A stretch of 64,000 bases of DNA from positions 174,706 to 238,705 of the forward strand of contig JACPLC010000001.1 of NCBI GenBank assembly GCA_016186695.1, in the 5' to 3' direction. Every line of letters begins with the position of its first letter. The stretch's first letter is position 1. The translations under genes and the position numbers were made by a program. This document shows, in pieces, positions 9,201-50,268 of this stretch. Below the pieces are notes generated by a model, which was not told the origin of the DNA, did no database searches, and saw only the letters and a list, made by a program, of their open reading frames with translations. This stretch comes from Candidatus Kaiserbacteria bacterium. Lineage in GTDB: Bacteria; Patescibacteriota; Minisyncoccia; Phycocordibacterales; UBA2100.

Positions 9201-12200
9201 GCCATATCCGACTATCGGGTTAACTTCCTTGCAGGGACTTCTATCCCCTCGGGCGGGCAGATCATTGTCACCTTCCCTTCAGGCTTCGACGTGTCGCGTG
9301 CTTCTACCACACCCGCAGCCTCGTCGCTCTGCAACAACGACATCAATGGCACACAGTTCAGCGGGCCCGCGAGCTTGCCTGTGATCGCATCGGCATCTGC
9401 GAATTCTGATGCCGGCACGGTCACCATCACGACTGCGGGCGACGCGACCGGCGCGAACACATTCATCTGTCTCGAGCTTACCGGTATCATCAACTCGACC
9501 GTGCCCTCGAGCTCCGGCTATACCGGCGACATCAAGACGCGCGACACGGCCGCGAACAATCGCGCTATTCTCGAGACGAAGACCACCTCGCCGTTCTTCC
9601 TCGGAGCGGCGGGCACTCGCACGCTCACGGTCAACGTCTTCAATGATGGAAATGCGAACAGCACCAACAACGCAAACGAAGGCATCGCCGCAGTGAAAGT
9701 CTTCCTCTTCTCGCCCGCGACTGGTGGCAACTCAACGACCACCAACGCCTCCGGTGTCGCCTCCTTCACCTCCCTTGCCGACGGTGACTACATGGTCGGT
9801 ATCGATCCGGGCACGCTTGCCTCGGCGTCTTCGACGGTTGTATACAACTCGTCTCCCCAGCCCATAACCATCTCTGCGACGAACCTCACGAAGAACATCA
9901 TCGTCTCCGGAGGGGGCAGTACCATCGCGCTTTCGGGTACAGTGACCGGCCCTAACGGCACCGATGTCGACATATTCGCTTCTTCGGGGCAGGGCTTCAC
10001 GAAGGTCGTGAAAACGATGACAGGAAGCGCCGTTTCCTACTCGCTCCGCATCTCGCCGAGCACGATATATAGCGTCGGCGTCGGCCCGGGGATGCCCGAT
10101 TCATTCTTCATTCCGGGAGGTCCACCGCCAAAGCCCCCGACCTTCACCTTCATGCCGCCGCCGAACGTGACGGTCATCGCAACGACGACGAACGTCACCG
10201 GAGTGAACTTCACGCTCTCCTCCGCGGATAAAACCATCACGGGCACCGTCGTCGATTCTGCAGGTAGCGCGGTATCGAATGCGGGAGTCTTCGCACGGCC
10301 AATCTCCAACACCACGTCTGGGGGTGGTCCCACCTCCGATCTCGGCTTCGGAAGCGGCGGCCAGACAGACACCTCTGGCGCCTTCTCCATCAATGTGGTC
10401 GCGGGCACGTACCTCGTCGGCGTCTTCAAGCCAGGCATGCCGAGCGTTCCCGACCAGCAGATAACCGTCCCCTCGAGCGGCGCGAACACGCCGAGCTCGC
10501 TTGCGTTCAAACTTGGCACCGCCTCGACGCTCACCATTTCCGGTACCGTGAAGGACGATAACGGCAACGCGATTCCGTACGCCGGCGTCGGCGGACGCAA
10601 GGTCGTCTCTACTGCCGACACGACGCCGATAGGCGGCGGTCAGGGTAACTTCGTGGGCGGCCCGACGGACGCCAACGGCGCATACACGCTCTATGTCACC
10701 AACGGCGTATGGCAGATCGAGGCGTACGCTCCCGGCTTCGGCAAGCTCGGCTCAAAAACGGTCACCGTCTCCGGTTCCTCCCTATCAGGGCAGGACTTCT
10801 CCGCGCAGACACTCTCCCTCGGCACTGTTACGGGAACGACGACCAAGGCGGCAGTCGCAGTGCAGGGCGTCATGGTACATGCCGAAGGAGCAAACGGCCG
10901 CAACTTTGGTGTTTCTGATGCAGACGGCGTGTACTCACTGAAGCTGCCTGCCGGAAGTTACACGCTCACCTGCTTCTTCCCGGGGATCGGCGATTCAACA
11001 CCGATCGACGTCACTTCTACCGCAGATACGACGAGCTACAGCAACAACTGCGCACTCGCTGCGCCGATCACCGTGACCGTCAACCTCACCGACGGCACGA
11101 ATCCGATCACGAACGCATACGTTGACGCGCGTACCTCTACGGGGCGCGGCAACGGCACGAGCGAGAGCACGAGTTCGGGTGCGAACGCCACCTACACCCT
11201 CACGCTCTCGCCCGGCACTTACACCGTTCGCGCGGGACACCCGGCCTTCGGCCCCATCGGTTCGACGGGAAGCGTTTCCTCCACACAGACCATTACCTAC
11301 ACCGCGCCCACGCTCTACAGCGTGACCGGCACGGTGAACTCCTCGGGCGTCGGCACGAACAATGCGTTTGTCTCTCTTACCGGAAGACCCACTGGGCAGA
11401 CGAACACCATCATGGTCGGCGCACAGACAAATGACAGTGGCGCCTACACGATTAGCGCGCCAAAAGGCTCGTACCAGCTCCGCGCCGATAAACCGGGCTA
11501 CATCCTTTCCGAGCCGGTCTCCGTCACTGTCGCGGGCAACACGACGGCTACGGAAGTCTCGCTCCGCGCGGCTTCGCGCACGATTTCCGGCACCGTCTCT
11601 CTCTCAAGCTCCGGCGTCTCGGGCGCGTTCGTGGATGCGACCGACGGCTCGGGAGGATTCGCAGTTGCACAAACCGACTCCGCCGGCGCCTACTCCTTGA
11701 GCGTGACACCCGCAAGCTGGGTCGTGACGGCGCGCTCTATCGGCTACCATGCCTCGACGACCGTTGATGTGACGAGTGCCTCCGCAAGCGGCCAGAACAT
11801 TACGCTCGCGGCGATCTCCGGATTCACACTTACTGCCGAGCGGCAGGAGACCATAACGCCGACGGCCGGCGGATTCGTCACCAACTCCGACATCGGTTCA
11901 AACTTCAAACTGACGATTCCTGCAAACGCGCTTGGCACCGGTTCGAATGCCGGTACCGTGAAGACGCAGGCGAACACCGCAGTGCCGGGTATCGCGAACG
12001 GCACCGTACTCTCGAAGAATGCGGTAACGATCTCAGCGGTTGACTCCTCGGGGCAGCCCGTCAAGAGCCTCAATGACGCGGTGACGGTCGTCGTGCCGTA
12101 TACCGAGGCAAGCGTTCCAAGCGGAACATCGGAGGCCGATCTGCAGCTCGGTGTATGGAACGACGCGACGCAGGCCTACGACATGCTCCCCACAACAGTC

Positions 12201-13262
12201 GACGTGACGAACAATACGCTCACGGCGAACGTGTCGCACTTCTCGGACTTTGCGCCGATTTCACCCGCGCAATCCTCTGGCTCTGCGGCGAGCACCGGAA
12301 GTACCGGGAGCTCCGGAAGCAGTGGAGGAGGCGGTGGCGGTGGAGGAGGGAGTGGCGGCAGCATCGTGAATCCTCCTGCAAAGACGATAGCGAAGGCCCA
12401 GATCATCTATCCCGACGGCACCGTGACGTACGTCGACCAAAACCTCGGTGTTGCGACGGGGGCGGCAGCTGCAGGAGCGGCACGAGGGAGTGCAGCGGGT
12501 GGAGCACGCTTCAGTGTCCTTCTCCGACAAGGCTCCAAGCATGCTGATGTGGCGCGACTCCAGAAAGCGCTCGGCGTTGATCCAACAGGGTACTTCGGGC
12601 CACTCACGCGTGCTGCAGTGGAGGCGTTCCAAGTAAAGCATGTAATAGCGAAGCGGGGCGACCCCGGATTCGGAACCCTTGGTCCGAAGACGCGTGCGAA
12701 GTTGAACGAACTCTTCGGCGAAGGTACTGGTGTTGCCGCGCCACAAGCCTCTGCGCAAGGTCAGGCACAAAGCGGACAGGCTGCAGTGACTTCTGGAACA
12801 CTCACGCGTGCCGTCAAGGTCGGCTCGTCTGGAGACGACGTGAAGCTTCTCCAGGTCGTACTCAACACGGACGCCGATACACGCATTGCCCTCTCCGGTG
12901 CTGGTTCTCCCGGAAACGAAACGACGCTCTTCGGGCGTCTCACTCTTGTCGCGATTCAGCGCTTCCAAGTGAAGCATGGCATCGTAAAGCCCGGCGGGGA
13001 GGGCTATGGAAACGTCGGTCCAAAGACGCGCGCGAAGCTAAACGAGATTCTCGCGGCGTGGCTTGCAGCAACTACCCCCGCGCCGGCTCCTACACCAGAA
13101 CCAACTCCGGCGCCGACACCCTCACCTGTCGCGACCTCAACGGATGCGACTGCAACGACGACCGCGAGTGTTTCTGCCGATGCAACGGCGACAACTACCT
13201 CGTCGACAACCAGCACAACAACGGTGACTGTAAGTGTTAGCGCGACTACCACTTCTTACTAA
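6201..13262 (+). CDS. Giant (2353 aa) cell-surface protein: N-terminal signal anchor, many Ig-like/ beta-sandwich (Big / carboxypeptidase-regulatory-like) repeats, Gly/Ser linker, three PG-binding modules, Thr/Pro-rich C-terminal tail
   Basis: Single uninterrupted 7 kb ORF. N-terminal TM is FAFVLFTALILLVVLLTSIA. The sequence is dominated by T/S/G/V/A-rich beta-strand repeats with recurring VTxxxVAPTV, TYTxTxSxxGY and GxYxVxxxxPGF segments of the kind seen in bacterial Ig-like and CarboxypepD_reg domains. A poly-Gly/Ser linker lies at about 12280..12360. There are three copies of the [10 protein letters not shown](L/I) PG-binding module, and the tail reads TPAPAPTPEPTPAPTPSP. Confidence 0.8.
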   Translation: MDISLVRHQAKVFAFVLFTALILLVVLLTSIARGAVGTLTTSDLTSTGQTIKASSAATAVIGINVVVSASETMASTSLMIAGTGGFVAADDLAALGTATSSGIAIYRDDAVSGTNGSFDSTDDVIPLASAPTFSGATTTLTFAGVEALPANNTGDNEGSDYFIVVQTSAAATNARLFTVSLYPGEVGFNVVRQSTPTALTTKSVTIDTVAPTVNTNTTGPASGSTNVPVSTFIHMGFSENLDQSTLNSNNIIFTQNGSAVGAGIRPFPDGFDIVVSNPPTYTASTKFAKVTTVSTGFYNVSGTNAITPQGAYTAPLYGDIVYTQFGTFPPEVGVITNSVLTSGTFAINGNALFSPSQVTKFASPAFATTTGTGSPVGIGDLVVTNTSANPADVRYGWHIVTTGASINGSGLRLDGASGQPTYPASTTLSKILPAATSTMDASGRLNATTTFSAGDLVFARVDRNGDHNDTYSWHLVTTGETINGLLGSGATPGTTSALRLDSGNGAPHFAPSSAFAKITTSATGAIDSGAQNATVFSLGDMLFARTTAGASNLDAYNFHLVSGGATGATSTALRLDNASSNLATSTTYVVTAKPGVTDSAGNALAASSTLSFTTGGTGGTNISPPYVQSSQPQGGSQSHPINGPIKLTFSVAMKSDGGANAVTNTAVVKLSTDVNGQPGVAVTSTNTYDSTTNTVTVTPSANLTASTNYVVLVMTTAQSTNNIGLPNEYRLYFRTSSGADSTAPTVLGVNPTNNSTNISLGPVFTAGFSEDMDPSTVTNSTLKLATQIGGTAVSGNVTYNQQSRSASFAPSTALSASTGYKFTVGAGLTGPADLSGNRLAATSTTFATTTATADTSAPSVQFASADNFGIAITFSETMKTGGGPNAADNVANYTLESPLGTSIGLGGKTVTYDGMTKTARISGLSLSNGSQFKATVATPVQDLAGNGISTSGTPAGNIAVGTVQNSSQTGGQLGPGTGTIDQSVQGMNPTQLMPMVRMAGAISDYRVNFLAGTSIPSGGQIIVTFPSGFDVSRASTTPAASSLCNNDINGTQFSGPASLPVIASASANSDAGTVTITTAGDATGANTFICLELTGIINSTVPSSSGYTGDIKTRDTAANNRAILETKTTSPFFLGAAGTRTLTVNVFNDGNANSTNNANEGIAAVKVFLFSPATGGNSTTTNASGVASFTSLADGDYMVGIDPGTLASASSTVVYNSSPQPITISATNLTKNIIVSGGGSTIALSGTVTGPNGTDVDIFASSGQGFTKVVKTMTGSAVSYSLRISPSTIYSVGVGPGMPDSFFIPGGPPPKPPTFTFMPPPNVTVIATTTNVTGVNFTLSSADKTITGTVVDSAGSAVSNAGVFARPISNTTSGGGPTSDLGFGSGGQTDTSGAFSINVVAGTYLVGVFKPGMPSVPDQQITVPSSGANTPSSLAFKLGTASTLTISGTVKDDNGNAIPYAGVGGRKVVSTADTTPIGGGQGNFVGGPTDANGAYTLYVTNGVWQIEAYAPGFGKLGSKTVTVSGSSLSGQDFSAQTLSLGTVTGTTTKAAVAVQGVMVHAEGANGRNFGVSDADGVYSLKLPAGSYTLTCFFPGIGDSTPIDVTSTADTTSYSNNCALAAPITVTVNLTDGTNPITNAYVDARTSTGRGNGTSESTSSGANATYTLTLSPGTYTVRAGHPAFGPIGSTGSVSSTQTITYTAPTLYSVTGTVNSSGVGTNNAFVSLTGRPTGQTNTIMVGAQTNDSGAYTISAPKGSYQLRADKPGYILSEPVSVTVAGNTTATEVSLRAASRTISGTVSLSSSGVSGAFVDATDGSGGFAVAQTDSAGAYSLSVTPASWVVTARSIGYHASTTVDVTSASASGQNITLAAISGFTLTAERQETITPTAGGFVTNSDIGSNFKLTIPANALGTGSNAGTVKTQANTAVPGIANGTVLSKNAVTISAVDSSGQPVKSLNDAVTVVVPYTEASVPSGTSEADLQLGVWNDATQAYDMLPTTVDVTNNTLTANVSHFSDFAPISPAQSSGSAASTGSTGSSGSSGGGGGGGGGSGGSIVNPPAKTIAKAQIIYPDGTVTYVDQNLGVATGAAAAGAARGSAAGGARFSVLLRQGSKHADVARLQKALGVDPTGYFGPLTRAAVEAFQVKHVIAKRGDPGFGTLGPKTRAKLNELFGEGTGVAAPQASAQGQAQSGQAAVTSGTLTRAVKVGSSGDDVKLLQVVLNTDADTRIALSGAGSPGNETTLFGRLTLVAIQRFQVKHGIVKPGGEGYGNVGPKTRAKLNEILAAWLAATTPAPAPTPEPTPAPTPSPVATSTDATATTTASVSADATATTTSSTTSTTTVTVSVSATTTSY

Positions 13263-31997: not shown

Positions 31998-32321
31998 ATG
32001 GAGAAAAATTCTGGCGAGGAATCTGTTCAAGATCAGATTTTTCGGCGCGAATTGGGTGATTTTGTTCACCTCTGTAATGAATACTGGGGAAAAAAGTTTG
32101 CAGTACTTCAAGCAAATCGCGATAAGGGGACTGAGGGTGACGAAGTATCGGCGGCTCGGGCGAAGCGCTTCGATAGAGAATATGCTGAATTCAAAGCAGA
32201 TCACATCGCCCTGCTGGGATTATTCAATAGATCAAGTTTCCGACGATTGACTGCCGATACAAAAGAAGAATATGAACGCCTAAAGCGGGGGTTGGAAAAT
32301 TTCATGCAAGGGCACCCATGA
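31998..32321 (+). CDS. Hypothetical protein
   Basis: 107-aa ORF with coding-like composition. It ends 1 bp before the nth start. No motif recognised. Confidence 0.4.
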   Translation: MEKNSGEESVQDQIFRRELGDFVHLCNEYWGKKFAVLQANRDKGTEGDEVSAARAKRFDREYAEFKADHIALLGLFNRSSFRRLTADTKEEYERLKRGLENFMQGHP

Positions 32322-32322
32322 T

Positions 32323-32988
32323 ATGTTAACCAGTTCGAAACTATTGCAGCGCCAAGCGCGTGCGCGAAGAATCCTCGCCTACCTCAAAAAGACATACCCA
32401 AAACCAAAGAGTGAGTTGAAGTACAAAACACCATTTCAGTTTGTCGTGTCGGTGGTTCTTTCAGCGCAATGCACCGATAAGGTCGTAAATCGTGTTACAG
32501 AGCCGCTCTACAAGAAGTACAAGACTGCACACGACTTTGCGAAGGCTAAACCGCACGTCTTTGAGAAAGAGATCTCGTCCGTCCCATTTTTCAGGAACAA
32601 AGCTAAAGCGATACGTTCGGCAGCGAAGGACATTGTGAAAGATTTCGGCGGGCGCATTCCCCGCACTGCTGGGGAACTGCAGGCATTGCACGGCGTGGGA
32701 TACAAAACGGCGCACGTCATCCTCGGCGAACTTTTTGGTATTTGGGAAGGCATTCCTACGGACACCCATGTAAAACGCTTCGCACGCCGCTTCGATCTAT
32801 CCACTCACACCGACCTCAAAAAGATTTCACACGATCTCGAAGCACTCGTTTCAAAAAAGGACTGGAAGTATGTCAATAATGGCCTCGTGCTCTATGGCCG
32901 CTACGTCTGTTCTGCGCGAAAGCACGATTGTTCAAAGCATCCCTTAACTAAACTCTGGCCGCCGGCTGCCATTCGTTGGCCGAAGTGA
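32323..32988 (+). CDS. nth: Endonuclease III (HhH-GPD DNA glycosylase/AP lyase)
   Basis: FQFVVSVVLSAQCTD, HhH LHGVGYKTAHVILGELFG, catalytic D in IPTDTHV. C-terminal Cys cluster CSARKHDCSKHP. Confidence 0.8.
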   Translation: MLTSSKLLQRQARARRILAYLKKTYPKPKSELKYKTPFQFVVSVVLSAQCTDKVVNRVTEPLYKKYKTAHDFAKAKPHVFEKEISSVPFFRNKAKAIRSAAKDIVKDFGGRIPRTAGELQALHGVGYKTAHVILGELFGIWEGIPTDTHVKRFARRFDLSTHTDLKKISHDLEALVSKKDWKYVNNGLVLYGRYVCSARKHDCSKHPLTKLWPPAAIRWPK

Positions 32989-33114: not shown

Positions 33115-35487
33115 TCAATATCCTTTGTTTTTGATGAGTGTTTCGAGCAATTCGCGAGGATATATCGGCGAATTTTCTGAGAGGGCTTGATGGTAGAGCA
33201 CGGTCGAAGGCGTGAGACCGGGGAGGGTATTCACTTCAATAATGAGGAGTTCGCCGGTGCGGATGTGCGCGAAGGCATCGATACGCGAATATCCCTCTAT
33301 GCCGATCTCTTTGGCGAATGTTTCGACGCGCCGACGTATTTTTTCAACGATGGCCGGCTTCATAACCGAGGGTGGTGGAGGGGTCAGATTTATGCCGGTC
33401 CCGCCCTGAAACTTCTCCTCTACCGAGAGCACCTCGCCTTCGGCGATGGTTATTGAAGGGTTGAGCGCATGGATGCGGCGATCCTGTTCAATGACGCCAA
33501 TGGTTATCTCAACGAAACCCGTCTTCTTTGTGTGTTTAAGCGCGTTATTCCGCACGCGGAGGATGTCCGTTTCCACAAACGCTTCAAACAGCAAAAACTC
33601 CGGCGGCTCGGGCGGCATCTCGATGATCCCGGCCTGACCTTTAAACGTGAGCGGCGCTGCGTGCGGTGCTTTTTCACGAAGAAGTGTCAGGTATGCGCGG
33701 AGATCACTGGCCGAATACAAGTGGACGACGCCGGTGGAGCATCCGTCGCTCCGTGGCTTCACGACGAGCGAGCGCGCGGCGAGTGATTTTTTCGTCCCAT
33801 TCCAGAACTTTCCGAGACCGGTGTCGTTCATCTGAAGAAGGGTTTTTGTGGCGGCGATCGTTCCTACGGTCGCTGATACTCCCTCGATATTCGCGCGCCG
33901 GATGTGCTCGGCGGTTGCCCATTTGTCCATGCAGAGTTTCGAGGTGCGCGCTTCCGGTCCGTTGAAGCGTATGTGCCTCTGCGCAAGCTTCATCTGGAGC
34001 GTGCCATCCTCGCCTTTGCCTCCGTGAAGCGCATTGAAAAGAAATGCGCGCTCATTCAATAGCTCATCGAGCGACATCTTCTGCGGCTCAAAGAATTCGC
34101 GCGGATCTTTTTTTGCCGAGAAACCGAGATGCAGTCGCGCGCGCTCTTCGTAGAGCGCAAGTCGTTCTTTTGCCGCTTCGTAGTTCCTGCAATTTTCGGC
34201 AATCTCTTCGACCGTATGGTTCAGCGTAAGATGGTAGGGAAGTTTCCACACGGTCTCCCCGTCGGTGTCCAAAAGAAACGGGCGAGGTTCGTATAGCTTT
34301 GAGTTGCGCAGTTTGAGCCACACATTAGTGCCGCTCATTAAGGAGACCTGCCGCTCGGAAGTTCCGCCGCCGAAGAGGACCGAGACAGGTTTTCGCTTGA
34401 TGTGTTCGGCCGCAGAGTCGTTTGTCGGAAGACTTAACGAATAGCGCCTGCGGGCGCTTTCGAGAATGTAGCGTAGAGCATCGTGGTGGGTGAGACCTAC
34501 CCGAGCGCTCTGCTGGAAAAGAAAGCTGTTTTGCTCCATGCCCGAGACGATGTTGAAGTCGGAAAACCATATGTCGCCCGAGGGCAGGATCCATCCATCG
34601 AATCGCGCGAAGTCGCGCATGCCGAACAGCGCAAAGAGCTGTTCGGCATGCGCCTGAATGCGCTCGATCGAAAAATCGTCAAAGCGAGGTGGGCTGTGAT
34701 AGGTAACGTGGCGCGTCGGCAGATATTTCTTTCTGAAATCGAATATCTGGTGCTCGGTGTAGTCAGTCTCGATCTCCGTCGGCGGGAGTGCAACGGGGAT
34801 GCCGAATCGATTTTGCAGGATGATAACCGTAAATTCGCGTCCTTCGGCGAATTGCTCGATGACCACGCGCGTGTCCATTCGCTTTGAAAATATAAGGTCG
34901 GCTTTTTCTATTGCTTCTTCGGGTGTGGAAACGGAAAAAACGCCGATGGAAGAGCCGCCGCTGGCGGGTTTCACGATGGCGCGTTTGATACTGTACTTTT
35001 TGAAGAAATCGCGTGCGATCGCGAGGTGGTCCTTCGCATAAATTTTCAAAAGCGCCGATGGCATTGTAAAGAAGCCTTTTTCCTGTATGAATTGATTGCT
35101 TATGAACTTGTCGAACGCCTCTCTGCAGCTTTTTGAGCCGGAGCCAACAAAGGGGATATCGTACTTTTCAAGGAACTGCTGAATTTTGCCATCTTCGCCG
35201 TATGGCCCATGCATGACAGGAAACACAATGTCGGTCTTTTTCAGCGCACGAACGAACTGTTTTGTCGTGAGCGGAGCCGAGGCGTTCTTCAACTTGAAAT
35301 CAAAGTCAGAGGGCGTGTTGCTGTAAAGTTGCCCCGTGGAAATGTGATAGGCGTTTTTCTTTTGGTCGAGATAGAACGGCACGATTTCGATTCCGTCAGA
35401 ACTCAAATGGTCGAGGACTGAACGCGCGGAATTGAGGGATATACCCCGTTCAAGGGAAGGGCCGCCGCATATGAGTCCGATTTTCAT
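33115..35487 (-). CDS. Tandem fusion of two D-alanine--D-alanine-ligase-like ATP-grasp enzymes (790 aa)
   Basis: The first half starts MKIGLICGGPSLERGISLNSARSV and ends ...DFNIVSGME (Ddl EINTxPG). The second half starts KPVSVLFGGGTSERQVSLMSGT and ends ...LIIEVNTLPGLTPSTVLYHQAL. Both halves carry the Ddl N-terminal GG-S-E and C-terminal (E/D)xN(T/I)xPG motifs. Confidence 0.75.
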   Translation of the reverse strand: MKIGLICGGPSLERGISLNSARSVLDHLSSDGIEIVPFYLDQKKNAYHISTGQLYSNTPSDFDFKLKNASAPLTTKQFVRALKKTDIVFPVMHGPYGEDGKIQQFLEKYDIPFVGSGSKSCREAFDKFISNQFIQEKGFFTMPSALLKIYAKDHLAIARDFFKKYSIKRAIVKPASGGSSIGVFSVSTPEEAIEKADLIFSKRMDTRVVIEQFAEGREFTVIILQNRFGIPVALPPTEIETDYTEHQIFDFRKKYLPTRHVTYHSPPRFDDFSIERIQAHAEQLFALFGMRDFARFDGWILPSGDIWFSDFNIVSGMEQNSFLFQQSARVGLTHHDALRYILESARRRYSLSLPTNDSAAEHIKRKPVSVLFGGGTSERQVSLMSGTNVWLKLRNSKLYEPRPFLLDTDGETVWKLPYHLTLNHTVEEIAENCRNYEAAKERLALYEERARLHLGFSAKKDPREFFEPQKMSLDELLNERAFLFNALHGGKGEDGTLQMKLAQRHIRFNGPEARTSKLCMDKWATAEHIRRANIEGVSATVGTIAATKTLLQMNDTGLGKFWNGTKKSLAARSLVVKPRSDGCSTGVVHLYSASDLRAYLTLLREKAPHAAPLTFKGQAGIIEMPPEPPEFLLFEAFVETDILRVRNNALKHTKKTGFVEITIGVIEQDRRIHALNPSITIAEGEVLSVEEKFQGGTGINLTPPPPSVMKPAIVEKIRRRVETFAKEIGIEGYSRIDAFAHIRTGELLIIEVNTLPGLTPSTVLYHQALSENSPIYPRELLETLIKNKGY

Positions 35488-35525: not shown

Positions 35526-36353
35526 TTGAGCCATGAAATTGCATCCAGCCTCCGTACACAGATCAAAGATAACACCTCTTGCACGAAAGGTATAGTACGT
35601 ATCCCCAGTGGCAGCCGCTCTGGTAGGATAAGGAGCGTGGCAAACAGGAAGCGAGTTTACCCTGAGCGAAGTCGAAGGGTAGCGGTATTTGATGTCGACG
35701 GTACAATGTTTCGCTCGAGCCTTTTGATACAGCTCGTCGGAAGGTTGATCGAGGATGGCGTGTTTCCGAAGGAGGCACGAAGTGTCTACGAGAGAGACTA
35801 CGAAAAGTGGCTCAATCGCGAGGGGGACTATCAGGAATACATCAACGCCGTTGTTCAGGCATTCAATAAATATCTCAAAGGTGTGCACTACGGTGCGCTT
35901 GCGGATGCCGCAGAAGAGATCGTCGAGGAACAGTGGAAACGAGTCTACCGCTACACGCGCGATCTCATTAAAGATCTAAAGAAGCGCGACTACTATCTTC
36001 TCGCCGTCTCGCATTCTCCAAAAACGGTGCTCGACAAATTTTGTCCGCGTATGGGTTTCGACAAAGCGTATGGCATCGTCTATGAGATAGGCCCGCAGGA
36101 ACTCTTTACAGGCAAAATGCTGGAAGAGCATCTCATTCTCAACAAGGCCGCGATCTTGAAACGCGCTGTCGATAAAGAAAATCTCACGCTCGAACATTCA
36201 ATCGGTGTCGGCGATACCGAAACCGACATCTCGTTTTTGGAAATGGTTGCCGAACCGATTTGTTTTAATCCCAACATGAAACTCTACACGTACGCGAAGC
36301 GGATGAAGTGGAAAGTGGTGGTCGAGCGGAAGGATGTAATATACGAGATATGA
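35526..36353 (+). CDS. HAD-superfamily hydrolase, subfamily IB-like
   Basis: Motif I VAVFDVDGTMF. The C-terminal GVGDTETDISFLEM matches motif IV. The annotated N-terminal 45 aa look non-native, so the true start is probably an internal or GTG codon just upstream of VAVFDVDG. Confidence 0.6.
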   Translation: MSHEIASSLRTQIKDNTSCTKGIVRIPSGSRSGRIRSVANRKRVYPERSRRVAVFDVDGTMFRSSLLIQLVGRLIEDGVFPKEARSVYERDYEKWLNREGDYQEYINAVVQAFNKYLKGVHYGALADAAEEIVEEQWKRVYRYTRDLIKDLKKRDYYLLAVSHSPKTVLDKFCPRMGFDKAYGIVYEIGPQELFTGKMLEEHLILNKAAILKRAVDKENLTLEHSIGVGDTETDISFLEMVAEPICFNPNMKLYTYAKRMKWKVVVERKDVIYEI

Positions 36354-37405
36354 AATTCGAGCAAACGCCGCGGCGAGAAGCACCGAAAGGCGGCAGAGAG
36401 GGGTTTGACGCGGACACGGAAAACAAGCGCGTCGCGTTCTTAGAAGATGCCGCGAAAAAATATTTAGAAGAAGATGTTGTTACTGTCGAATGGGTGGAAA
36501 ATATATTGGAGAAGGTCGATTTCAAGGAGGTGCGAAATATCTTCGCAGAGCATGCCCGCCACGCTGGTGTACCTGATGAAAAACTTAACTTTGTATGGCC
36601 GGATAGATTTTTTGTCCTGTCTGACGAACATGCCTCATCTACATTTCTATACGATCCGTTCGCAAACGCTGTGGTAATAAGTGGTAGCTTATTCAGATCT
36701 CAACTTGAGTCCAAGCAAGATGACGAGAACATCGCGCAGTACTTTCTCTTCGGTTTGTTTCATGAACTGGCACACATCACTGCGGAAAATCGGTTGCAGA
36801 TCACCGACGAAAAGCAAGGAGAACATTCAAAAATGCTGAACTACGCCGACGTGGGGATTATCTGTCGGTCCGGATTTAATAAGATTAATGTCTCTGATCG
36901 AGCAGCTTCCTTCGTAATGTTTGAAGAGGCAATTACGCAGGCAGTGGCAACAGAAGTTGGGAGGGAATATCTGAGGCGTCGTCCGCTAGATGTATTCGAC
37001 AATCGAATTTCCAGCACAAAATACGACGAATTCTGCAAAAGCGGGGTCGAGCGAAAAATGCCGCGAGTACTTGCCGGCCAAATGAGACATTTCCGTGCCG
37101 CACAGGGTTTTTTTGAACGGTTATCTGAACACGTAGCGAAAGAGTGCGGAGTCCCTAAGGATATCGCGAACCGTGCGTTTATAGCAGCGCATTATTCGGG
37201 ATCCGACCTTACTCCCGAACTGCGCGAACTCATTGACGGTATTGTCGGGCAAGGATTTATCGAACGTCTGGCTGGCGCGCAGACAAAGTCGGATTTTGAA
37301 CACATAGCGCGGACATATAAGTTCGCCCCCATCAGCGATTCCATGAGTAAGAAGGTCCTCAGATTCTTTGGATTTGCGCTCGAAAGCAATGAAAAAAACA
37401 GATGA
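36350..37405 (+). CDS. Hypothetical zincin-like protein (HELAH motif)
   Basis: The ORF track starts at 36308. ATG 36350 overlaps the upstream stop (ATGA), which suggests translational coupling with the HAD gene. It contains LFGLFHELAHITAENR (HExxH). No named family recognised. Confidence 0.5.
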   Translation: MKFEQTPRREAPKGGREGFDADTENKRVAFLEDAAKKYLEEDVVTVEWVENILEKVDFKEVRNIFAEHARHAGVPDEKLNFVWPDRFFVLSDEHASSTFLYDPFANAVVISGSLFRSQLESKQDDENIAQYFLFGLFHELAHITAENRLQITDEKQGEHSKMLNYADVGIICRSGFNKINVSDRAASFVMFEEAITQAVATEVGREYLRRRPLDVFDNRISSTKYDEFCKSGVERKMPRVLAGQMRHFRAAQGFFERLSEHVAKECGVPKDIANRAFIAAHYSGSDLTPELRELIDGIVGQGFIERLAGAQTKSDFEHIARTYKFAPISDSMSKKVLRFFGFALESNEKNR

Positions 37406-38225
37406 TCGATCAAATATACGGACGTTTCGCACTTCCGTTTTAAAGCATTGGCGCGAATACGGGCGGCACGATTTGCCGTGGCGGCAGACGAATGATCCGT
37501 ACAAAATTCTTGTTTCGGAAGTGATGCTTCAGCAGACGCAGGTGCATCGCGTCGTTCCGAAGTACAAGGAATTTTTGAAAACGTTCCCGACGGTCCGTCA
37601 TTTGGCAAGGTCTCACCTTGCCGATGTTTTGAGGGCTTGGAGCGGACTCGGGTACAACAGGCGGGCAAAATTCCTTCGTGATGCTGCGGTGCAGATCGTC
37701 GAAAAACTCGGCGGCAAGATCCCGCGTGACTACGAAACACTTCGTGCACTCCCGGGCATTGGCGATTACACAGCGAGAGCTATCCGTGTCTTTGTTTTCA
37801 ACGAGCCCGACATCCTCATCGAAACCAATATCCGCACAGCTTTCATTCATCATTTCTATTCTAGTATTTTGCAAAATACTGCAATAGCGGATGCCGATAT
37901 TTTTGCTTTGGCGAGTCAGACGGGGGAGGGGCAGGATCCGAGAGAATGGCACTGGGCGCTCATGGATTATGGAGCGTATCTCAAGCGCTCCGGTGTGCGC
38001 ACCAATCACCGAAGCGCACATTATGCGAAGCAATCGAAATTCGAGGGAAGTTTACGGCAGGTGCGGGGACAGGTTCTCCGCAATCTAATGAAAGGGGCGA
38101 AGGGGAAGAAAGGGGAGAAATGGGTAGAAGCGCTCGCTTCGCTCGTGCAAGATGGACTCGTCGTTGAGCAAAAAGGGTCCACCCGAGGCGGATCGGCCTT
38201 GGGCCGAAAGTGGCGCATTGCATAA
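37389..38225 (+). CDS. A/G-specific adenine glycosylase-like HhH-GPD protein (MutY N-terminal domain only, no Fe-S cysteine cluster)
   Basis: WREYGRHDLPWRQTNDPYKILVSEVMLQQTQVHRVVPKYKEFLKTFPTVRHLA is a close match to the MutY N-terminus. HhH is LPGIGDYTARAI. The C-terminal 80 aa lack the CX6CX2CX5C cluster and there is no NUDIX domain. Confidence 0.65.
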   Translation: MKKTDDRSNIRTFRTSVLKHWREYGRHDLPWRQTNDPYKILVSEVMLQQTQVHRVVPKYKEFLKTFPTVRHLARSHLADVLRAWSGLGYNRRAKFLRDAAVQIVEKLGGKIPRDYETLRALPGIGDYTARAIRVFVFNEPDILIETNIRTAFIHHFYSSILQNTAIADADIFALASQTGEGQDPREWHWALMDYGAYLKRSGVRTNHRSAHYAKQSKFEGSLRQVRGQVLRNLMKGAKGKKGEKWVEALASLVQDGLVVEQKGSTRGGSALGRKWRIA

Positions 38226-45549: not shown

Positions 45550-48500
45550 ATGCCCTCCTCTCGTGTTGCGGCAGGAGTTTTCCTGTTAGCTCCTCTTTTT
45601 TTGGCAGCGGTGCTCGTGCCGCTCCTTGCAGATGCTGCAGGCGATGTGTGTGATACGGCAAGCGAAGCGGCAAAGGGGAAGGTGACTAACGACTGCATCG
45701 CATGCATTACGGTCGTCGAGAACGGCCAACAAGTAAAGAAAGAAGTCGGTGCGATATGCAAAGTAACAGGCGGCGGTGATAAAACTGCCGCGAATTGTGT
45801 GCCCGGCACCAGCCCCACAAATCCTCCTCCCGGTACATGCAAGACGAAATATTGCGTCGGCACAAAATGTTTCGACGCAAATCTGACGACAAAGCCGACG
45901 GAAGGAAGCTGGATTCCGCAGAACACCTCGGACCTCTCGAAGCTCCACAACGACCTTTCGTGGGGAGGCGTGTCGGTGTCGCCGATTTCCTCTGATCAGA
46001 GTCCCATACCGGACAAGTCTTTCTTCGATTCCGCTCAATATTCTGGGTCGGATTTCCAAGGAGCAGACCCATTCAGTCAACCAGACGCGACATCGAAGTA
46101 TTTGCAAGATCTACAAGATCAAGTGGATCGGGCGCAGGCGAACACGCCGAATCCTTCACTCAATCAACCCGCGGAGCCGACAAATTATATTCAGGAAGCT
46201 CTCAGGCGACTGGGTGTCTCGTTTCCGGGCTTGGATGAGCAAGCTGCACAGCTCGAAGCGGTGAGCGATAAGAGTCAGCTGGAGCAGATGGCCAAGCAGC
46301 AGCCGGTTCCTACGCAGAGTACAGGCTTCACTGCATCGGAGATTGACACCAAGCCTCCTGCCGAGCCGGCATGGTTTGATTCTGCCCGCAGATGGATTGC
46401 TCAGCAATTGGGAATCGGGGCTGAGGCTGCAGTACCTAGATTGGTGCCAGACGGGAAAGGGGGTTACCGTCTAGCCCCCGGAACTAACTTTTCAGAAGCG
46501 GATAAAAATCCTCCCCGCTCTAGTGCGAATCAAATCCAAGGATTGGACGGCCCCGCCGTTTACAAGTCTACACATTATAAGAACCCCTCGGGTCTCACTG
46601 GTTCGGGAGCGAAATTTGATGATATTACAATAGCTTGCAATGCGTGTCCCATGGGAACGTCGGGCCAACTTGATTTTCTTGATAAAAGTGGAAATGTCGT
46701 CTACAGCAAACAAATGGTTGTGAAAGAGTGGGGTGACCTTCAGCCAGGAGTCGGAATTGATATTAATACACAAACTGTCCGCGATGCTCAAGCGAAAACG
46801 GGCATTCCTTTTTTGCAGGAAGGTGTCACAGGAACTACACACAGCGGAGGAGTGCGGTTCACACCCGAGGCCGTTTTTCAAGGACGAATTCCCGGTGATG
46901 GGTGGTATGCGGATCGTGCAGCCGTTCAAGTTGCAGAGCAGTACGCGAATGCGCGGAATGCGGGCTATTCTCCCGCTGAAGCCATATCGCAATTGACCAG
47001 TGGACAGGTCACCTACAAGTCGGCGTATGTTTTTGGCAGTGAAGTCCCTTCGCCATTTACGCTCGCGTCTGCAGCACCGGCGCCAAGCGACAGCTATGCG
47101 CCATCGTGGATCGCTTCGACGCCTGGCTTTATTGCTGCGAACACGGCCGGCTCACCAGATGTATCTCCGTTCTCTGCAACGTATGACATCACATCGTACG
47201 GTCCAGCCGCACCGCCTGCCAGCGAAAGTTATCTGCCATCGTGGATAGCGTCGATACCGGGGTTTGATAGCGGCGTCCCTTCTTACGTCACTCCTTTTTC
47301 GCCTAGTGCAGACATCGCCGAGTACGAACTATCGCCCGAATATTTCGGTCCGAGTGGAGCAGAAAACATTAGCGTAGTGTTGCCTGATCAATTTCCTGAC
47401 AGTTTGATGCACGGCGACACTGCTGAAGCGATGCGTCTGATCGAGGAAGGAGCTTTAGGAAAGTTGCCCGAGCCACAGATTGTTGCTCAATTGTCGGGTG
47501 GAACCACGCGGGGCATCGGCCTTTTGAGGTCAGATGCTTCAGGACTTCCTGCGAATTTCGATTCGTCCGCCTTTGATTCCGGAGTTTCTCTTACCCAGGA
47601 GGAAGTTCAGACGGCACTGGACACAGCTGAAGCCACGCGGCTTGCCGAGAGCGACGCGCTCGCTTCAGGGTTTCCAGGTCTTACTCCCCTTACTCCGCAG
47701 GAGATTTCGGATGCTTACGAACGGTATGGCAAAGAACAGGCGCGACTTGCTCTCGAAGGCTACAAGGCTCAAGACCTAGCACTCGATACTGGAAGCGGGA
47801 TAAGCTATCCGATAGATTGGGACAAACTCGCGTTCACCGACAGTGGATTCGACAAGCCGCAGGATTTTGCAGGCATAACGGCAGATGAATCCCAGCGTAC
47901 GACCCGCGATCTCGCAAATTTCACTATTGATGAGTCACAACGAACAGCTCCGTCAACACCATATGATGTCGCCGGAGTGAATGCCGATGAGTTTCAACGA
48001 ACGTCGCAGGATCTCGCGGCTATCACAGAAGACGAGTCTCAGCGAACAGCGCGGCAGGAACCAGACCTGCGAGGGATTACGGAGGATGAATCTCAACGAA
48101 CTGCTCCCCAAGAATCAAAGGTTGCCGATTTAACTAAGTGCGCAAGCGAGTCGTGTGTCGGGGGAGAGATAATAGGAGACGAAAGAAGTGTTCCTCTGAC
48201 AGATGAGCAGTTAGCCGCGAAGGTCGCGGCAGAGGAGGAACGAATTTTTAATGAAGAGCAAGCGCGACTCGCGCAGATCGTCGAGAAGGCACAAAAGGCA
48301 GGGGACGACGTTAAGGCGGCGGCGGAGAAAGTAAAAGCTGCAGGCAAAGATTTTCTTGCCGGAGGAAGCCCCCAAGGTTTAATTGATGCTGGAAATGAGC
48401 TTAAAGCGAAAGTGGCAGAATATGAGAAGGCGTACAAGGAACTGAAATCCTCGGGAGTACTCTCAAGCAGCGAACTAAAAAAAATTGATGCTGATCGAGC

Positions 48501-50268
48501 GTTAGTTCAGAACGACCTCAATGAAATCTCTACGTGGAAAGGGCGTCTTGAAACGGCTGTCAACGTAGCGAGTAAAGTATCAATTGCGGGGGACAGATTC
48601 GGCTCGACATTTGGAAATCCCGAGTTGGGTCGCCAAGCCTACGAGCAGGCGGTGGAGACTGTCAGACAAAACCTCAGGAAACCCGAAAATCAGGCGCAGA
48701 TCAATTCTGCAACTGAAAGAATCATGGGACCCGTAGGTCGATTGGCGGCGATTCCTTCGTACGAACCTAAGTCCTACGTCCCTCCGCCCTCGTCGGAACT
48801 TCAATTGGCTGCAAACCCCGGTGGCCCGACATTCGTGTTTACGGATCCGTACGAATCGACTTCCGACAGTCCACCACTCGACTTTTCTTCCGGAGCGGTT
48901 GCCCAAGAGACGCCTATTCCGCCGCTAAGTCTTGATTATGACGATTACGGATTGGCCGAAATCCGACAATACCAGGCCGAGCAAGCGGCATCCCAGTACG
49001 ATTCCTATGGCGACGAGGCAATTCGACAGTACTACGCCGAACAAATCAGAGAAAATCAGGAGGCCTACGTAGCATTCAGCAAAGTAGAGTTTCCCAAGAC
49101 TTGGCCGTATCCGATAAGCGAGATGCCCGACTACTTTGCGGAAAGTGGCCGCCCCACACCAGCGTTGTCCTTGCTCGACCAGTATGCAGAGGGTGGCGCG
49201 CCGGACTTGGCGCAGATCGCGCGCGACGCAGGGCTGGCACAGGAAGACTTGAGAGACTCAAGCTCTGGCCTGCTTTACCCTCCGGCTGAGAGTTCGGAAG
49301 AAAGAAAATGGCCGGTTCTCGTGTACACCGATCCAGACGCTGAATATAACGTAGCCGCGCAGAAAGCTGGGGAAGAACGTGCGATAGCTCTGGCGGACGC
49401 AGAAGAGAAATCCGCGTTCGATAGGTGGTACGAGAACCTTGTCTTGGATGGCAAATATGATCCGAGTCCATACGAAGTGCCGGCGGGAGCAGTCTCGCTT
49501 CCGGAGGAGATTTGGGATCGAGTAGCCCTCAATCGACCTTCGTCAGATCATGAGTCGGATGAACCATATCGACCCTCTTCCGAACCTGGGCGGGATGCGC
49601 CGAGCCCAGAATTTCTTAGGCAACAGGAACAAATTGCACTCGGCCTCAACCCATCTGAAGGATTCCAAAGGGGAGGTCTCGAGCCTGGCATTACTCCTAC
49701 CAAAGTTGTGCCTGAATTAGTATCGCGGCAAGTTCCAGAAAACATAGAATCGACGCAAGCCGATGGAACGCCAAAATCCCCTCTGTCGTTGGCTGCAGCG
49801 CAACCCTCGACAGCACCAACCAGATCTGCCGACGCGAAGCCTGTGGAGGCGCGCGCTCCGCTGCCGATCGAGGTCCCTACCGTTGGCGATGCGAAGACTC
49901 CATATGACTTGTGGGGGAAAGATCTGCCCTCCAAGGAAATTAGAAGCAAGTTGTACAACCAGCTTGCGGAGGAGGGATTTGTCAACGTCGAGCGCTACAC
50001 AGGAACGGGCGACCAGAACCGCGCTTTAATAGACGGCCTGAAAGAAAGACAGCAAGCGACTGCCGTTCCGAATCCCTATGCGCGCGCTCAGAAAGTCTAT
50101 TCGGAAGGAGATTCGATCGTTGACTTCTTGAGCGCAGGCAACATGAAGAGTGATTTTGGGAGCCGAAGATCGTTGTTCGACAGCGTGGTTGGCTACGGTA
50201 CGTATACCGGCACGGCGTCACAAAACCAAGCGCTTCTTGAACTCTTACGCAAGAGAGGAGATCAGTAA
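45550..50268 (+). CDS. Giant (1572 aa) secreted protein, hypothetical: N-terminal Cys-rich module, internal (D/E)ESQRT x5 repeats, coiled-coil segment, C-terminal tandem YTGTxxQNxAL motifs
   Basis: Signal peptide MPSSRVAAGVFLLAPLFLAAVLVPLLADA. Ten Cys in the first 90 mature residues. SYxPSWIASxPGF appears twice. ADESQRT, IDESQRT, ADEFQRT, EDESQRT and EDESQRT lie at about 47880..48110. The coiled-coil AAKVAAEEERIFNEEQARLAQIVEKAQKAG lies at about 48230..48330. The C-terminus carries YTGTGDQNRALIDGLKERQ and YTGTASQNQALLELLRKRG. GC is about 46-53% against about 60% for core genes. Confidence 0.75.
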   Translation: MPSSRVAAGVFLLAPLFLAAVLVPLLADAAGDVCDTASEAAKGKVTNDCIACITVVENGQQVKKEVGAICKVTGGGDKTAANCVPGTSPTNPPPGTCKTKYCVGTKCFDANLTTKPTEGSWIPQNTSDLSKLHNDLSWGGVSVSPISSDQSPIPDKSFFDSAQYSGSDFQGADPFSQPDATSKYLQDLQDQVDRAQANTPNPSLNQPAEPTNYIQEALRRLGVSFPGLDEQAAQLEAVSDKSQLEQMAKQQPVPTQSTGFTASEIDTKPPAEPAWFDSARRWIAQQLGIGAEAAVPRLVPDGKGGYRLAPGTNFSEADKNPPRSSANQIQGLDGPAVYKSTHYKNPSGLTGSGAKFDDITIACNACPMGTSGQLDFLDKSGNVVYSKQMVVKEWGDLQPGVGIDINTQTVRDAQAKTGIPFLQEGVTGTTHSGGVRFTPEAVFQGRIPGDGWYADRAAVQVAEQYANARNAGYSPAEAISQLTSGQVTYKSAYVFGSEVPSPFTLASAAPAPSDSYAPSWIASTPGFIAANTAGSPDVSPFSATYDITSYGPAAPPASESYLPSWIASIPGFDSGVPSYVTPFSPSADIAEYELSPEYFGPSGAENISVVLPDQFPDSLMHGDTAEAMRLIEEGALGKLPEPQIVAQLSGGTTRGIGLLRSDASGLPANFDSSAFDSGVSLTQEEVQTALDTAEATRLAESDALASGFPGLTPLTPQEISDAYERYGKEQARLALEGYKAQDLALDTGSGISYPIDWDKLAFTDSGFDKPQDFAGITADESQRTTRDLANFTIDESQRTAPSTPYDVAGVNADEFQRTSQDLAAITEDESQRTARQEPDLRGITEDESQRTAPQESKVADLTKCASESCVGGEIIGDERSVPLTDEQLAAKVAAEEERIFNEEQARLAQIVEKAQKAGDDVKAAAEKVKAAGKDFLAGGSPQGLIDAGNELKAKVAEYEKAYKELKSSGVLSSSELKKIDADRALVQNDLNEISTWKGRLETAVNVASKVSIAGDRFGSTFGNPELGRQAYEQAVETVRQNLRKPENQAQINSATERIMGPVGRLAAIPSYEPKSYVPPPSSELQLAANPGGPTFVFTDPYESTSDSPPLDFSSGAVAQETPIPPLSLDYDDYGLAEIRQYQAEQAASQYDSYGDEAIRQYYAEQIRENQEAYVAFSKVEFPKTWPYPISEMPDYFAESGRPTPALSLLDQYAEGGAPDLAQIARDAGLAQEDLRDSSSGLLYPPAESSEERKWPVLVYTDPDAEYNVAAQKAGEERAIALADAEEKSAFDRWYENLVLDGKYDPSPYEVPAGAVSLPEEIWDRVALNRPSSDHESDEPYRPSSEPGRDAPSPEFLRQQEQIALGLNPSEGFQRGGLEPGITPTKVVPELVSRQVPENIESTQADGTPKSPLSLAAAQPSTAPTRSADAKPVEARAPLPIEVPTVGDAKTPYDLWGKDLPSKEIRSKLYNQLAEEGFVNVERYTGTGDQNRALIDGLKERQQATAVPNPYARAQKVYSEGDSIVDFLSAGNMKSDFGSRRSLFDSVVGYGTYTGTASQNQALLELLRKRGDQ

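Follow-up and report, generated by a model that had tools for sequence, protein, structure and literature searches.

Known D-Ala-D-Ala ligases and related fusions

[quoted passage not shown] The canonical single-domain enzyme, represented by E. coli DdlB (PDB codes 2DLN and 1IOV) and by the TIGR01205 model, is a homodimer. Among its relatives are the D-Ala-D-lactate ligases, such as Leuconostoc LmDdl2 (PDB code 1EHI) and VanA (PDB code 1E4E), and the presence of a Phe or a Tyr at the omega-loop position separates depsipeptide from dipeptide ligases (PMC8807649). Fusions within the peptidoglycan pathway, including MurC-Ddl of Chlamydia, MurE-MurF and MurF-Alr, join different enzymes. MurC-Ddl, but not Ddl-Ddl, is included in a survey of Mur chimeras (PMC10214165).

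The closest described proteins are the DDLs of plants and green algae, such as PpDDL of Physcomitrium patens and AtDDL of Arabidopsis. The moss and Arabidopsis proteins are fusions of two putative DDL enzymes, and in moss this fusion is needed for D-Ala dimerisation (PMC9954125). Moss ddl knockouts do not dimerise D-Ala and exhibit giant chloroplasts (PMC9954125; PMC12681378), and moss makes a D-Ala-D-Ala pentapeptide (PMC9434261). Moss is the only plant in which the supply of D-Ala-D-Ala to peptidoglycan is described as needed in vivo (PMC9954125; PMC12681378). Angiosperms without the full peptidoglycan gene set still retain a DDL gene (PMC12681378), which hints at a role beyond the supply of D-Ala-D-Ala. 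No description of a bacterial tandem Ddl was found in the literature searched.

A tandem Ddl gene in Candidatus Kaiserbacteria

The stretch of DNA that was analysed, hereafter the window, covers 64 kb of a Candidatus Kaiserbacteria genome. According to the ORF list and translation, its minus strand carries a complete coding sequence of 790 codons plus a stop codon (33115..35487), with an ATG start, no interruption and the stop at 33115-33117. The product is identical to the NCBI entry 'hypothetical protein HYW59_01205 [Candidatus Kaiserbacteria bacterium]'. The initial annotation had described this gene as a tandem Ddl-Ddl fusion, and indeed the single ORF encodes two Ddl-type ATP-grasp units (aa 1-345 and 366-790). 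The Pfam domains Dala_Dala_lig_N (PF01820) and Dala_Dala_lig_C (PF07478) are each found twice, and both exceed their gathering cutoffs in the whole protein (159.9 and 136.2 bits, respectively) as well as in the C half alone (67.6 and 51.2 bits). When aligned with each other, the two halves show 21% identity (E 6e-10).

The curated NCBIfam/TIGRFAM model TIGR01205, which has a cutoff of 245.65 bits, gives 316.5 bits for the whole protein, a score reached only by summing the two modules. Taken singly, both halves remain below the cutoff: the N half reaches 201.7 bits over profile positions 1-317 (of 318), and the C half 120.3 bits. As neither half alone passes the curated models, bacterial members are annotated as 'hypothetical protein', and reconstructions of Patescibacteria pathways may therefore wrongly score ddl as missing or odd.

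The gene had also been noted to stand alone on its strand, and both immediate neighbours (32323-32988 and 35526-36353) do lie on the plus strand. Nothing was found that lends meaning to this orientation, and a scan for promoters and terminators around the gene returned counts at chance level. By phmmer against six-frame ORFs, no other ddl, Mur ligase or alr was found in the window.

Organisation of the two modules

Residues were mapped onto EcDdlB, the reference sequence of which was verified as 1IOV/2DLN. The tandem protein shares its fold and domains with canonical Ddl and its fold with the D-Ala-D-lactate ligases; sequence and fold comparisons returned Ddl, VanA, VanG and LmDdl2 as the only solved relatives, with TM scores of 0.77-0.88 per module. 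It differs from canonical Ddl in having two modules in one chain and additional conserved insertions that are specific to the family, and in that each module alone falls below the TIGR01205 cutoff. All the catalytic residues of EcDdlB have counterparts in both halves, with a Glu-Ser-Tyr triad in the N half and a Glu-Cys-Phe triad in the C half.

The N-terminal module (aa 1-345; 34453..35487, minus strand), delimited by TIGR01205 and by residue mapping, keeps E15, H63, K97, K144, S150, E180, K215, Y216, R255, D257, N272 and S281 of DdlB, its triad being E13/S179/Y255 (E15/S150/Y216 in DdlB). Family-specific changes are observed at D310 (for E270), S315, E318 and F322, so that this module exhibits an Asp for Glu270, a Glu for Thr278 and a Phe for Leu282. 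An insertion relative to EcDdlB carries the near-invariant family-specific motif LYSNTPSDFDFKL (aa 54-66; 35290..35328, minus strand), in which Y55, N57, T58, P59, S60, D61, F62, D63, F64 and K65 are invariant in alignment A1. The omega loop, FDFRKKYLP (aa 249-257; 34717..34743, minus strand), was placed by alignment, K254-Y255 corresponding to K215-Y216 of DdlB; its low pLDDT in the AF2 model fits a mobile lid.

The linker between the modules (aa 346-365; 34393..34452, minus strand) is recognised by its poor conservation, with a mean column conservation of 0.27 over aa 346-366 against about 0.50 in the modules.

The C-terminal Ddl-like module (aa 366-790; 33118..34392, minus strand), delimited by Pfam, TIGR01205 and residue mapping, is divergent and contains two large insertions, with its ATP, Mg and catalytic residues intact. 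Its triad is E378/C583/F693, and T762/V763 stand in place of S281/L282; compared with DdlB, it therefore exhibits Cys150, Phe216, Thr281 and Val282. The Cys583 codon, at the position of DdlB Ser150, lies at 33739..33741 (minus strand). An insertion in the N-terminal domain of this module carries the motif WxLPYxLxLNHTVEEIxxxC (aa 414-433; 34189..34248, minus strand), which is also present in the moss protein and in which W414, P417, Y418, L422, N423, H424, T425, E427, E428, I429 and C433 are invariant in A1. The omega loop of the C module, VEEKFQGGTGINLTPPPP (aa 689-706; 33370..33423, minus strand), with K692-F693 corresponding to DdlB K215-Y216, is the most conserved segment of the protein, reaching 0.87 in the 15-residue block 691-705, and it overlaps a segment of low pLDDT (684-697) in the AF2 model. 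The conserved motifs of the family include LYSNTPSDFDFK and WxLPYxLxLNHTVEE.

Both halves had been said to share two Ddl motifs, and for each motif this is true of one half only. The start motif GGxSxExxxSLxS is exact in the N half (G8..S20), and the C half reads GGGTSERQVSLMS, one residue off register. Conversely, the end motif E-V-N-T-x-P-G-L-T is present in the C half as EVNTLPGLT (aa 751-759), but its place in the N half is taken by D-F-N-I-V-S-G-M-E (aa 310-318).

The AF2 model of the full 790-aa chain has a pLDDT of 88 and a pTM of 0.86, which points to a defined arrangement of the two modules relative to each other.

The family in bacteria and plants

The architecture had been considered non-standard, and possibly specific to one lineage. 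Plant DDL, however, is already described as having this architecture (PMC9954125), which is also widespread among bacteria. We found 119 full-length close relatives (784-834 aa, 60-84% identity) and at least 115 distant cluster representatives spanning both halves. In addition, genomes were searched with three peptide patterns, among them the LYSNTPSDFDFKL motif, which yielded confirmed full-length relatives with an uninterrupted tandem ORF in at least 571 GTDB species genomes. As the ORF is uninterrupted throughout these sets, hundreds of independent genomes among them, an assembly or frameshift artefact is ruled out. The hosts are spread over Patescibacteria, Chlamydiia, Proteobacteria, Bdellovibrionota, Clostridia, Actinomycetota, Planctomycetota and Dependentiae.

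Natural split forms were considered as evidence for a heterodimer and rejected, since half-length database matches are almost all contig-end fragments. The only one resembling a free-standing gene for the C half, P0231, lies on a 1.6-kb contig and is too thin to use.

With regard to plant and green-algal DDLs, the two modules are present in the same order and the proteins are colinear, including the insertions. The window protein shows 42% identity to the tandem protein P0333 of Physcomitrium patens (857 alignment columns, 609 bits) and 47% to the green-algal member P0204. Judging from species and architecture, P0333 is probably the published PpDDL gene. Of 30 signature positions, the moss and window proteins agree at all but one, namely position 282 of the N half (DdlB numbering), where P0333 has an I and the window protein an F. 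Cys150/Phe216 (C half) and Asp270/Glu278 (N half) are among the shared ones. The N-terminal extension of the moss protein, about 110 additional residues, is absent from the bacterial protein, which also lacks a transit peptide and has shorter loops than plant DDL. Given its colinearity with and 42% identity to the moss tandem DDL, the window protein belongs to the family of the plant two-DDL fusion. By sequence, the gene is thus a Patescibacterial member of a widespread, previously unrecognised bacterial family that includes the plant 'double DDL'.

The best BLAST matches of the plant proteins are from Peregrinibacteria and Peribacteria. In a neighbour-joining tree, plants form their own clade (95/100), which is sister to a broad bacterial group and lies outside Patescibacteria. 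A purely Patescibacterial sister group was obtained in 0/100 bootstraps, and a derivation of plant DDL from Patescibacteria was therefore rejected.

Conservation of the active sites

Conservation was assessed in three sets, comprising the 119 close relatives, 115 distant cluster representatives, and 120 plant and algal proteins. In the close relatives, K97, K144, E180, K215, R255, D257, E/D270 and N272 (DdlB numbering) are invariant in both halves, position 270 of the N module being a conservative Asp for Glu. In the distant representatives, the catalytic, ATP and Mg residues are invariant or nearly so in both halves. The main exception is E180, which is Q in 18 N halves and varies in 9 C halves. 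The same residues are near-invariant in the plant and algal proteins. The claim that both halves are complete Ddl-like ATP-grasp units is therefore borne out in all three sets.

The residues around the second substrate differ between the halves in a constant manner. The Cys of the C half at DdlB position 150 is found in 119/119 close relatives, in 109/115 distant representatives (the other six have a Ser) and in 119/120 plant and algal proteins (the single exception being a gap), and the Phe at position 216 in 119/119, 114/115 and 119/120, respectively. Overall, the N half exhibits S150/Y216/D270/E278 and the C half C150/F216/T281/V282, with few exceptions across the 115 bacterial and 120 plant and algal sequences.

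Genetic links to alr and murF

The gene of the window adjoins neither alr, murF nor other mur genes. Elsewhere in the family, such links are observed. Among 79 loci, alr lies within 8 kb of the tandem gene in 16, and the count rises to 19 when murF is included. In five Patescibacteria loci, alr starts 5-13 bp downstream of the tandem gene on the same strand, and in Actinomycetota, MurF-Alr fusion genes adjoin it. Some relatives of the tandem protein resemble the known peptidoglycan chimeras in carrying further enzymes of this pathway: P0144 is a fusion with MurF (TIGR01143, 323 bits, cutoff 288.6), and P0184 a fusion with MurF (357 bits) and alanine racemase. Unlike MurC-Ddl, MurE-MurF and MurF-Alr, however, the tandem Ddl joins two paralogous copies of one enzyme. 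These Rosetta-stone fusions, together with the alr and murF neighbours, assign the enzyme to the D-Ala branch of the peptidoglycan pathway. In addition, the presence of MurJ in the same window (61016-62713) indicates that the organism makes lipid II.

Probable function of the tandem protein

Based on these observations, the gene probably encodes the housekeeping D-Ala-D-Ala ligase of a tandem 'plant-type' family, built as a covalent pseudo-dimer. Two Ddl-type ATP-grasp modules would have fused once, long ago, and are predicted to pack together like the subunits of the usual Ddl dimer, but within one covalent chain, an arrangement compatible with the confident whole-chain model (pTM 0.86). Its canonical Glu-Ser-Tyr D-Ala site would make the N module the surest source of D-Ala-D-Ala. 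The first D-Ala would be phosphorylated by ATP, and the resulting acyl phosphate would be attacked by the second D-Ala. The C module is probably an active ligase too, because its phosphoryl-transfer and Mg residues are all kept, but its second-substrate pocket is fixed as Cys/Phe/Thr/Val. MurF would then join the dipeptide to UDP-MurNAc-tripeptide in peptidoglycan synthesis.

The N half has Ser150/Tyr216 where the C half has Cys150/Phe216, and this difference between the pockets could also fit a synthetase with two products. In such an enzyme, the N module would make D-Ala-D-Ala and the C module would be an active ligase with a different second substrate, namely a D-hydroxy acid (yielding a depsipeptide, e.g. 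D-Ala-D-Lac), D-Ser or another D-amino acid, and one chain would supply two precursor termini or a second metabolite. F693 is a Phe at the position where depsipeptide ligases of lactic acid bacteria exhibit a Phe for Tyr, whereas the N module has a Tyr (PMC8807649). This Phe and Cys150 are fixed in essentially all members, from bacteria to plants, and a structural study exists of the Y216F mutant of DdlB (PDB code 1IOW). The long and strict retention of both active sites would be easier to explain if their functions differed, as would the fact that the gene is kept by angiosperms without the full peptidoglycan gene set (PMC12681378). If true, a two-product synthetase would be conserved from Patescibacteria to plant plastids, which could explain both why the two active sites have been kept since the fusion and why DDL is present in angiosperms without the full pathway.

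Nevertheless, we consider a second product unlikely. The C half fails all the D-Ala-D-lactate and D-Ala-D-Ser models by far, with 56.8 bits for D_ala_D_lac (cutoff 550), 74.3 for VanG (cutoff 495) and 61.3 for VanC (cutoff 650); the N half also fails VanG (138.2 bits). Moreover, the Y216F mutant of DdlB still makes D-Ala-D-Ala. The C module is closer to ordinary Ddls (E 4.5e-17) than to LmDdl2 (1EHI; E 3e-4). The recurrent partners of the gene are alr and murF, and a van-like context was not observed: no VanH-type dehydrogenase, VanX dipeptidase or serine racemase was found in the window or among the recurrent neighbours of the 79 loci. Finally, the D-Ala-D-Ala pentapeptide is the only one reported from moss (PMC9434261).

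The C module is also the more divergent half (120 against 202 bits with TIGR01205), it contains two large insertions and it lacks the Ser-Tyr part of the triad, as might be expected if it were a catalytically silent pseudo-enzyme that serves the N module only as a surface for dimerisation or as an allosteric regulator. Dead ATP-grasp copies, however, normally lose their phosphoryl-transfer and Mg ligands. Here, K97, K144, K215, R255, D257, E270 and N272 of the C module are invariant or nearly so in all sets, and even the slightly more variable E180 is kept in 106/115 distant representatives. A degenerate duplicate, by which the initial annotation could have been overturned, is ruled out by this conservation in both halves, the overall conservation of the two halves being equal (0.50 and 0.49). 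As the omega loop of the C half is the most conserved stretch of the protein, a dead or regulatory half, which had also been suggested, is very unlikely.

The absence of mur or alr neighbours in the window, the scores of the single halves below the curated Ddl cutoffs and the N-terminal GNAT domain of one relative (P0142) might suggest that the enzyme serves a different polymer or metabolite, for which it would ligate small acids or other D-amino acids, but the MurF and alanine racemase fusions and adjacency, the moss genetics (PMC9954125) and the presence of MurJ in the organism make this extremely improbable.

We thus favour the housekeeping D-Ala-D-Ala ligase built as a pseudo-dimer. The tandem form is used by a large share of uncultured bacteria and by all green plants, and the pocket of its second active site is a fixed but so far uncharacterised variant. 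The compact, intron-free bacterial orthologues offer plant biologists a tractable system, which could serve to ask what role each half of plant DDL plays and why angiosperms retain it. Hosts with large genomes, e.g. Dactylosporangium (11 Mb), almost certainly also own a canonical ddl, which suggests that the tandem enzyme is an accessory one in some lineages.

Architecture of the tandem protein

The ORF at 33115-35487 on the minus strand starts with ATG and runs uninterrupted for 790 codons. Pfam matches both Ddl domains, N-terminal and C-terminal, twice in the protein; the C half by itself (aa 357-790) passes the gathering cutoffs with 67.6 and 51.2 bits, and a pairwise alignment of the two halves shows 21% identity (E 6e-10). 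The tandem Ddl-Ddl arrangement proposed in the initial annotation is therefore real. The motifs attributed there to both halves are only partly found: the start motif GGxSxExxxSLxS matches in the N half and is shifted by one residue in the C half, and the end motif is EVNTLPGLT in the C half and DFNIVSGME in the N half. Scanned singly with the curated D-Ala-D-Ala ligase model TIGR01205, the N half scores 201.7 bits and the C half 120.3 bits, both below the cutoff of 245.65, which is exceeded only by the sum of both halves in the whole protein (316.5 bits). As neither half passes by itself, this probably accounts for the database name of the exact match, 'hypothetical protein HYW59_01205 [Candidatus Kaiserbacteria bacterium]', on a 258-kb contig.

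The AlphaFold2 model, based on a 55-sequence alignment, has a pLDDT of 88 and a pTM of 0.86 for the whole chain, the two omega loops being the sole low-confidence segments. Each module resembles the Ddl, VanA, VanG, and LmDdl2 chains, with TM scores of 0.77-0.88 (Foldseek). So high a pTM for a two-module chain implies a fixed packing between the modules, whose geometry would be that of a pseudo-dimer.

Active sites of the two modules

Both halves of 119 homologues were aligned with E. coli DdlB (sequence identical to PDB 1IOV/2DLN). E15, H63, K97, K144, E180, E187, K215, R255, D257, and N272 are invariant or nearly so in both halves. The N half retains S150 and Y216, which form the canonical triad with E15, and differs from DdlB by Asp at E270, Glu at T278, and Phe at L282. 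The C half exhibits Cys at S150, Phe at Y216, Thr at S281, and Val at L282. This asymmetric pattern recurs in distant bacterial representatives (C-half Cys in 109 of 115, Phe in 114 of 115) and likewise in 120 plant and algal proteins.

Taken with the relatives described below, these observations make a housekeeping D-Ala-D-Ala ligase the most likely identity of this tandem, plant-type protein, in which two active sites, both intact but not identical, would be held together as a covalent pseudo-dimer. The main alternative, a C site with another acceptor specificity that would make the protein a two-product synthetase, has a distinctly smaller probability. The C half carries Phe at position 216, where Phe versus Tyr is reported to decide between depsipeptide and dipeptide synthesis in Ddl enzymes (PMC8807649); in model scoring it is not specifically close to the D-Ala-D-Lac or D-Ala-D-Ser ligases, nor in sequence comparison to LmDdl2. 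A silent C half, akin to the regulatory half initially suggested, would fit its departures from the canonical triad and is nonetheless very unlikely: mean column conservation is 0.50 in the N half and 0.49 in the C half (0.27 in the linker), and the C-half omega loop EKFQGGTGINLTPPP is the most conserved block of the entire protein (0.87). This points to equal, strong purifying selection on both sites, which argues against a dead or purely regulatory half.

Relation to plant DDL

Some homologues were long and matched in multiple stretches, among them P0204, encoded on a Tara Oceans scaffold adjoining the eukaryote-type genes Syja_N, Rad10/ERCC1, and AMMECR1. As a query, P0204 retrieved green-algal and land-plant tandem proteins, including those of Mesostigma, Klebsormidium, Marchantia, Physcomitrium, Amborella, and many angiosperms. 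The Physcomitrium patens protein P0333, which would correspond to the published PpDDL, can be aligned with the window protein over both halves and the insertions, at 42% identity (609 bits). The window gene is thus a bacterial member of the plant DDL family. The tandem kind is already known from plants, whose DDL is described as two fused DDL units (PMC9954125), where moss ddl knockouts lose D-Ala dimerisation and have giant chloroplasts (PMC9954125; PMC12681378) and moss produces the ordinary D-Ala-D-Ala pentapeptide (PMC9434261); what is new is the unannotated bacterial member. The literature searchable for this analysis apparently describes neither the Cys/Phe pocket that is fixed in the second module nor how widely the family occurs among bacteria.

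In a bootstrapped NJ tree, plants are monophyletic (95/100) and sister to a broad bacterial clade, outside Patescibacteria, so we make no claim on the donor lineage of the plant gene. By BLAST, the DDL proteins of land plants and streptophytes have their best bacterial matches in Peregrinibacteria and Peribacteria (Patescibacteria) and not in cyanobacteria.

Distribution in bacteria

A word-indexed search returned at least 119 full-length homologues (784-834 aa, 60-84% identity); among the 119 matches listed, one is labelled Dependentiae and all others bear names of Patescibacteria/CPR lineages. When 1.84 billion cluster representatives were searched exhaustively, 385 clusters were obtained at E<1e-30, and at least 115 cluster representatives span both halves, with identity as low as ~33%. 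Scanning one genome per GTDB species confirmed at least 571 places, in many Patescibacteria classes, Chlamydiia and Parachlamydiaceae, Alpha- and Gammaproteobacteria, Bdellovibrionota, Clostridia, Actinomycetota (one of them a cultured Dactylosporangium), Planctomycetota, Holophagae, and one verrucomicrobial MAG, with Dependentiae/Babeliales as the most divergent branch. Given this recurrence and the full-length homologues, the fusion is neither an artefact nor, as had been considered, lineage-specific.

MAG labels conflict with the tandem-Ddl tree at loci L073, L059, L021, L057, L061, and L074. For example, a MAG named 'Francisella tularensis subsp. holarctica' groups within Patescibacteria, and MAGs named 'Saccharimonadales' and 'Pseudomonadota' group with Babeliales; these are likely mislabelled or contaminated bins. 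In a Candidatus Moanabacter MAG, the full tandem gene is followed ~1.1 kb downstream by a partial second C-half-type ORF (L025:11531-12364, 278 aa, motifs EEKFQGGTG and EANTIPGLTPST), which may be a duplicate or pseudogene. The C-half-type gene of P0231 (420 aa, L082:368-1630), which carries the E/C/F signature, seems to stand alone, and the ORF preceding it is phosphatidylserine-decarboxylase-like and not an N half; this sole instance, on one 1.6-kb contig, could reflect misassembly.

Linkage to peptidoglycan precursor synthesis

Two metagenomic relatives join the tandem Ddl to MurF (P0144, 1262 aa) or to MurF and alanine racemase (P0184, 1638 aa) in one polypeptide, with MurF portions above the TIGR01143 cutoff; P0184 holds the entire D-Ala branch of peptidoglycan precursor synthesis within a single chain. 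Such fusions are absent from a published survey of Mur chimeras (PMC10214165). The alr gene lies within 8 kb of the tandem gene in 16 of 79 loci, and alr or murF in 19; in five Patescibacteria loci, alr shares the strand of the tandem gene and starts 5-13 bp downstream of it. In Actinomycetota, MurF-Alr fusion genes adjoin the tandem gene. No recurrent van-type partner was found among the neighbours at the 79 loci. The fusions and gene proximity assign the family to the Alr, Ddl, MurF branch, and a role outside peptidoglycan, which the unrelated neighbours in the window might suggest, is the least probable reading of all.

The actinomycetotal fusions of a MurF-like ligase and alanine racemase (~760-1200 aa; L041, L043, L045, L048, L069, L080, L083) beside the tandem Ddl suggest that large genomes, which presumably also carry canonical genes, possess an accessory D-Ala module. 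Another homologue, P0142 (987 aa), has an N-terminal GNAT acetyltransferase domain.

Genomic neighbourhood

The neighbours of the tandem gene are unrelated housekeeping genes, encoding MetK, a CofD/YvcK-like protein, Gmad2, two HhH-GPD glycosylases, a HAD hydrolase, and RNase J, and no second ddl, nor any Mur ligase or alr, was found within the 64-kb window. The lipid II flippase MurJ is encoded at 61016-62713 (+) (Pfam, 174 bits), which shows that this small-genome organism exports lipid II and builds peptidoglycan. The Nth-like and MutY-like HhH-GPD DNA glycosylase genes, at 32323-32988 and 37368-38225 (both +), flank the tandem Ddl region on either side, within 5 kb. ORFs of 107 aa (31998-32321), 365 aa (36308-37405), and 1572 aa (45550-50268), all on the plus strand, have zero Pfam matches. 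A 2353-aa ORF at 6201-13262 (+) with Big_5, CarboxypepD_reg, and peptidoglycan-binding domains probably encodes a giant surface protein; its region has the highest GC in the window (0.595-0.625) and a negative GC skew.
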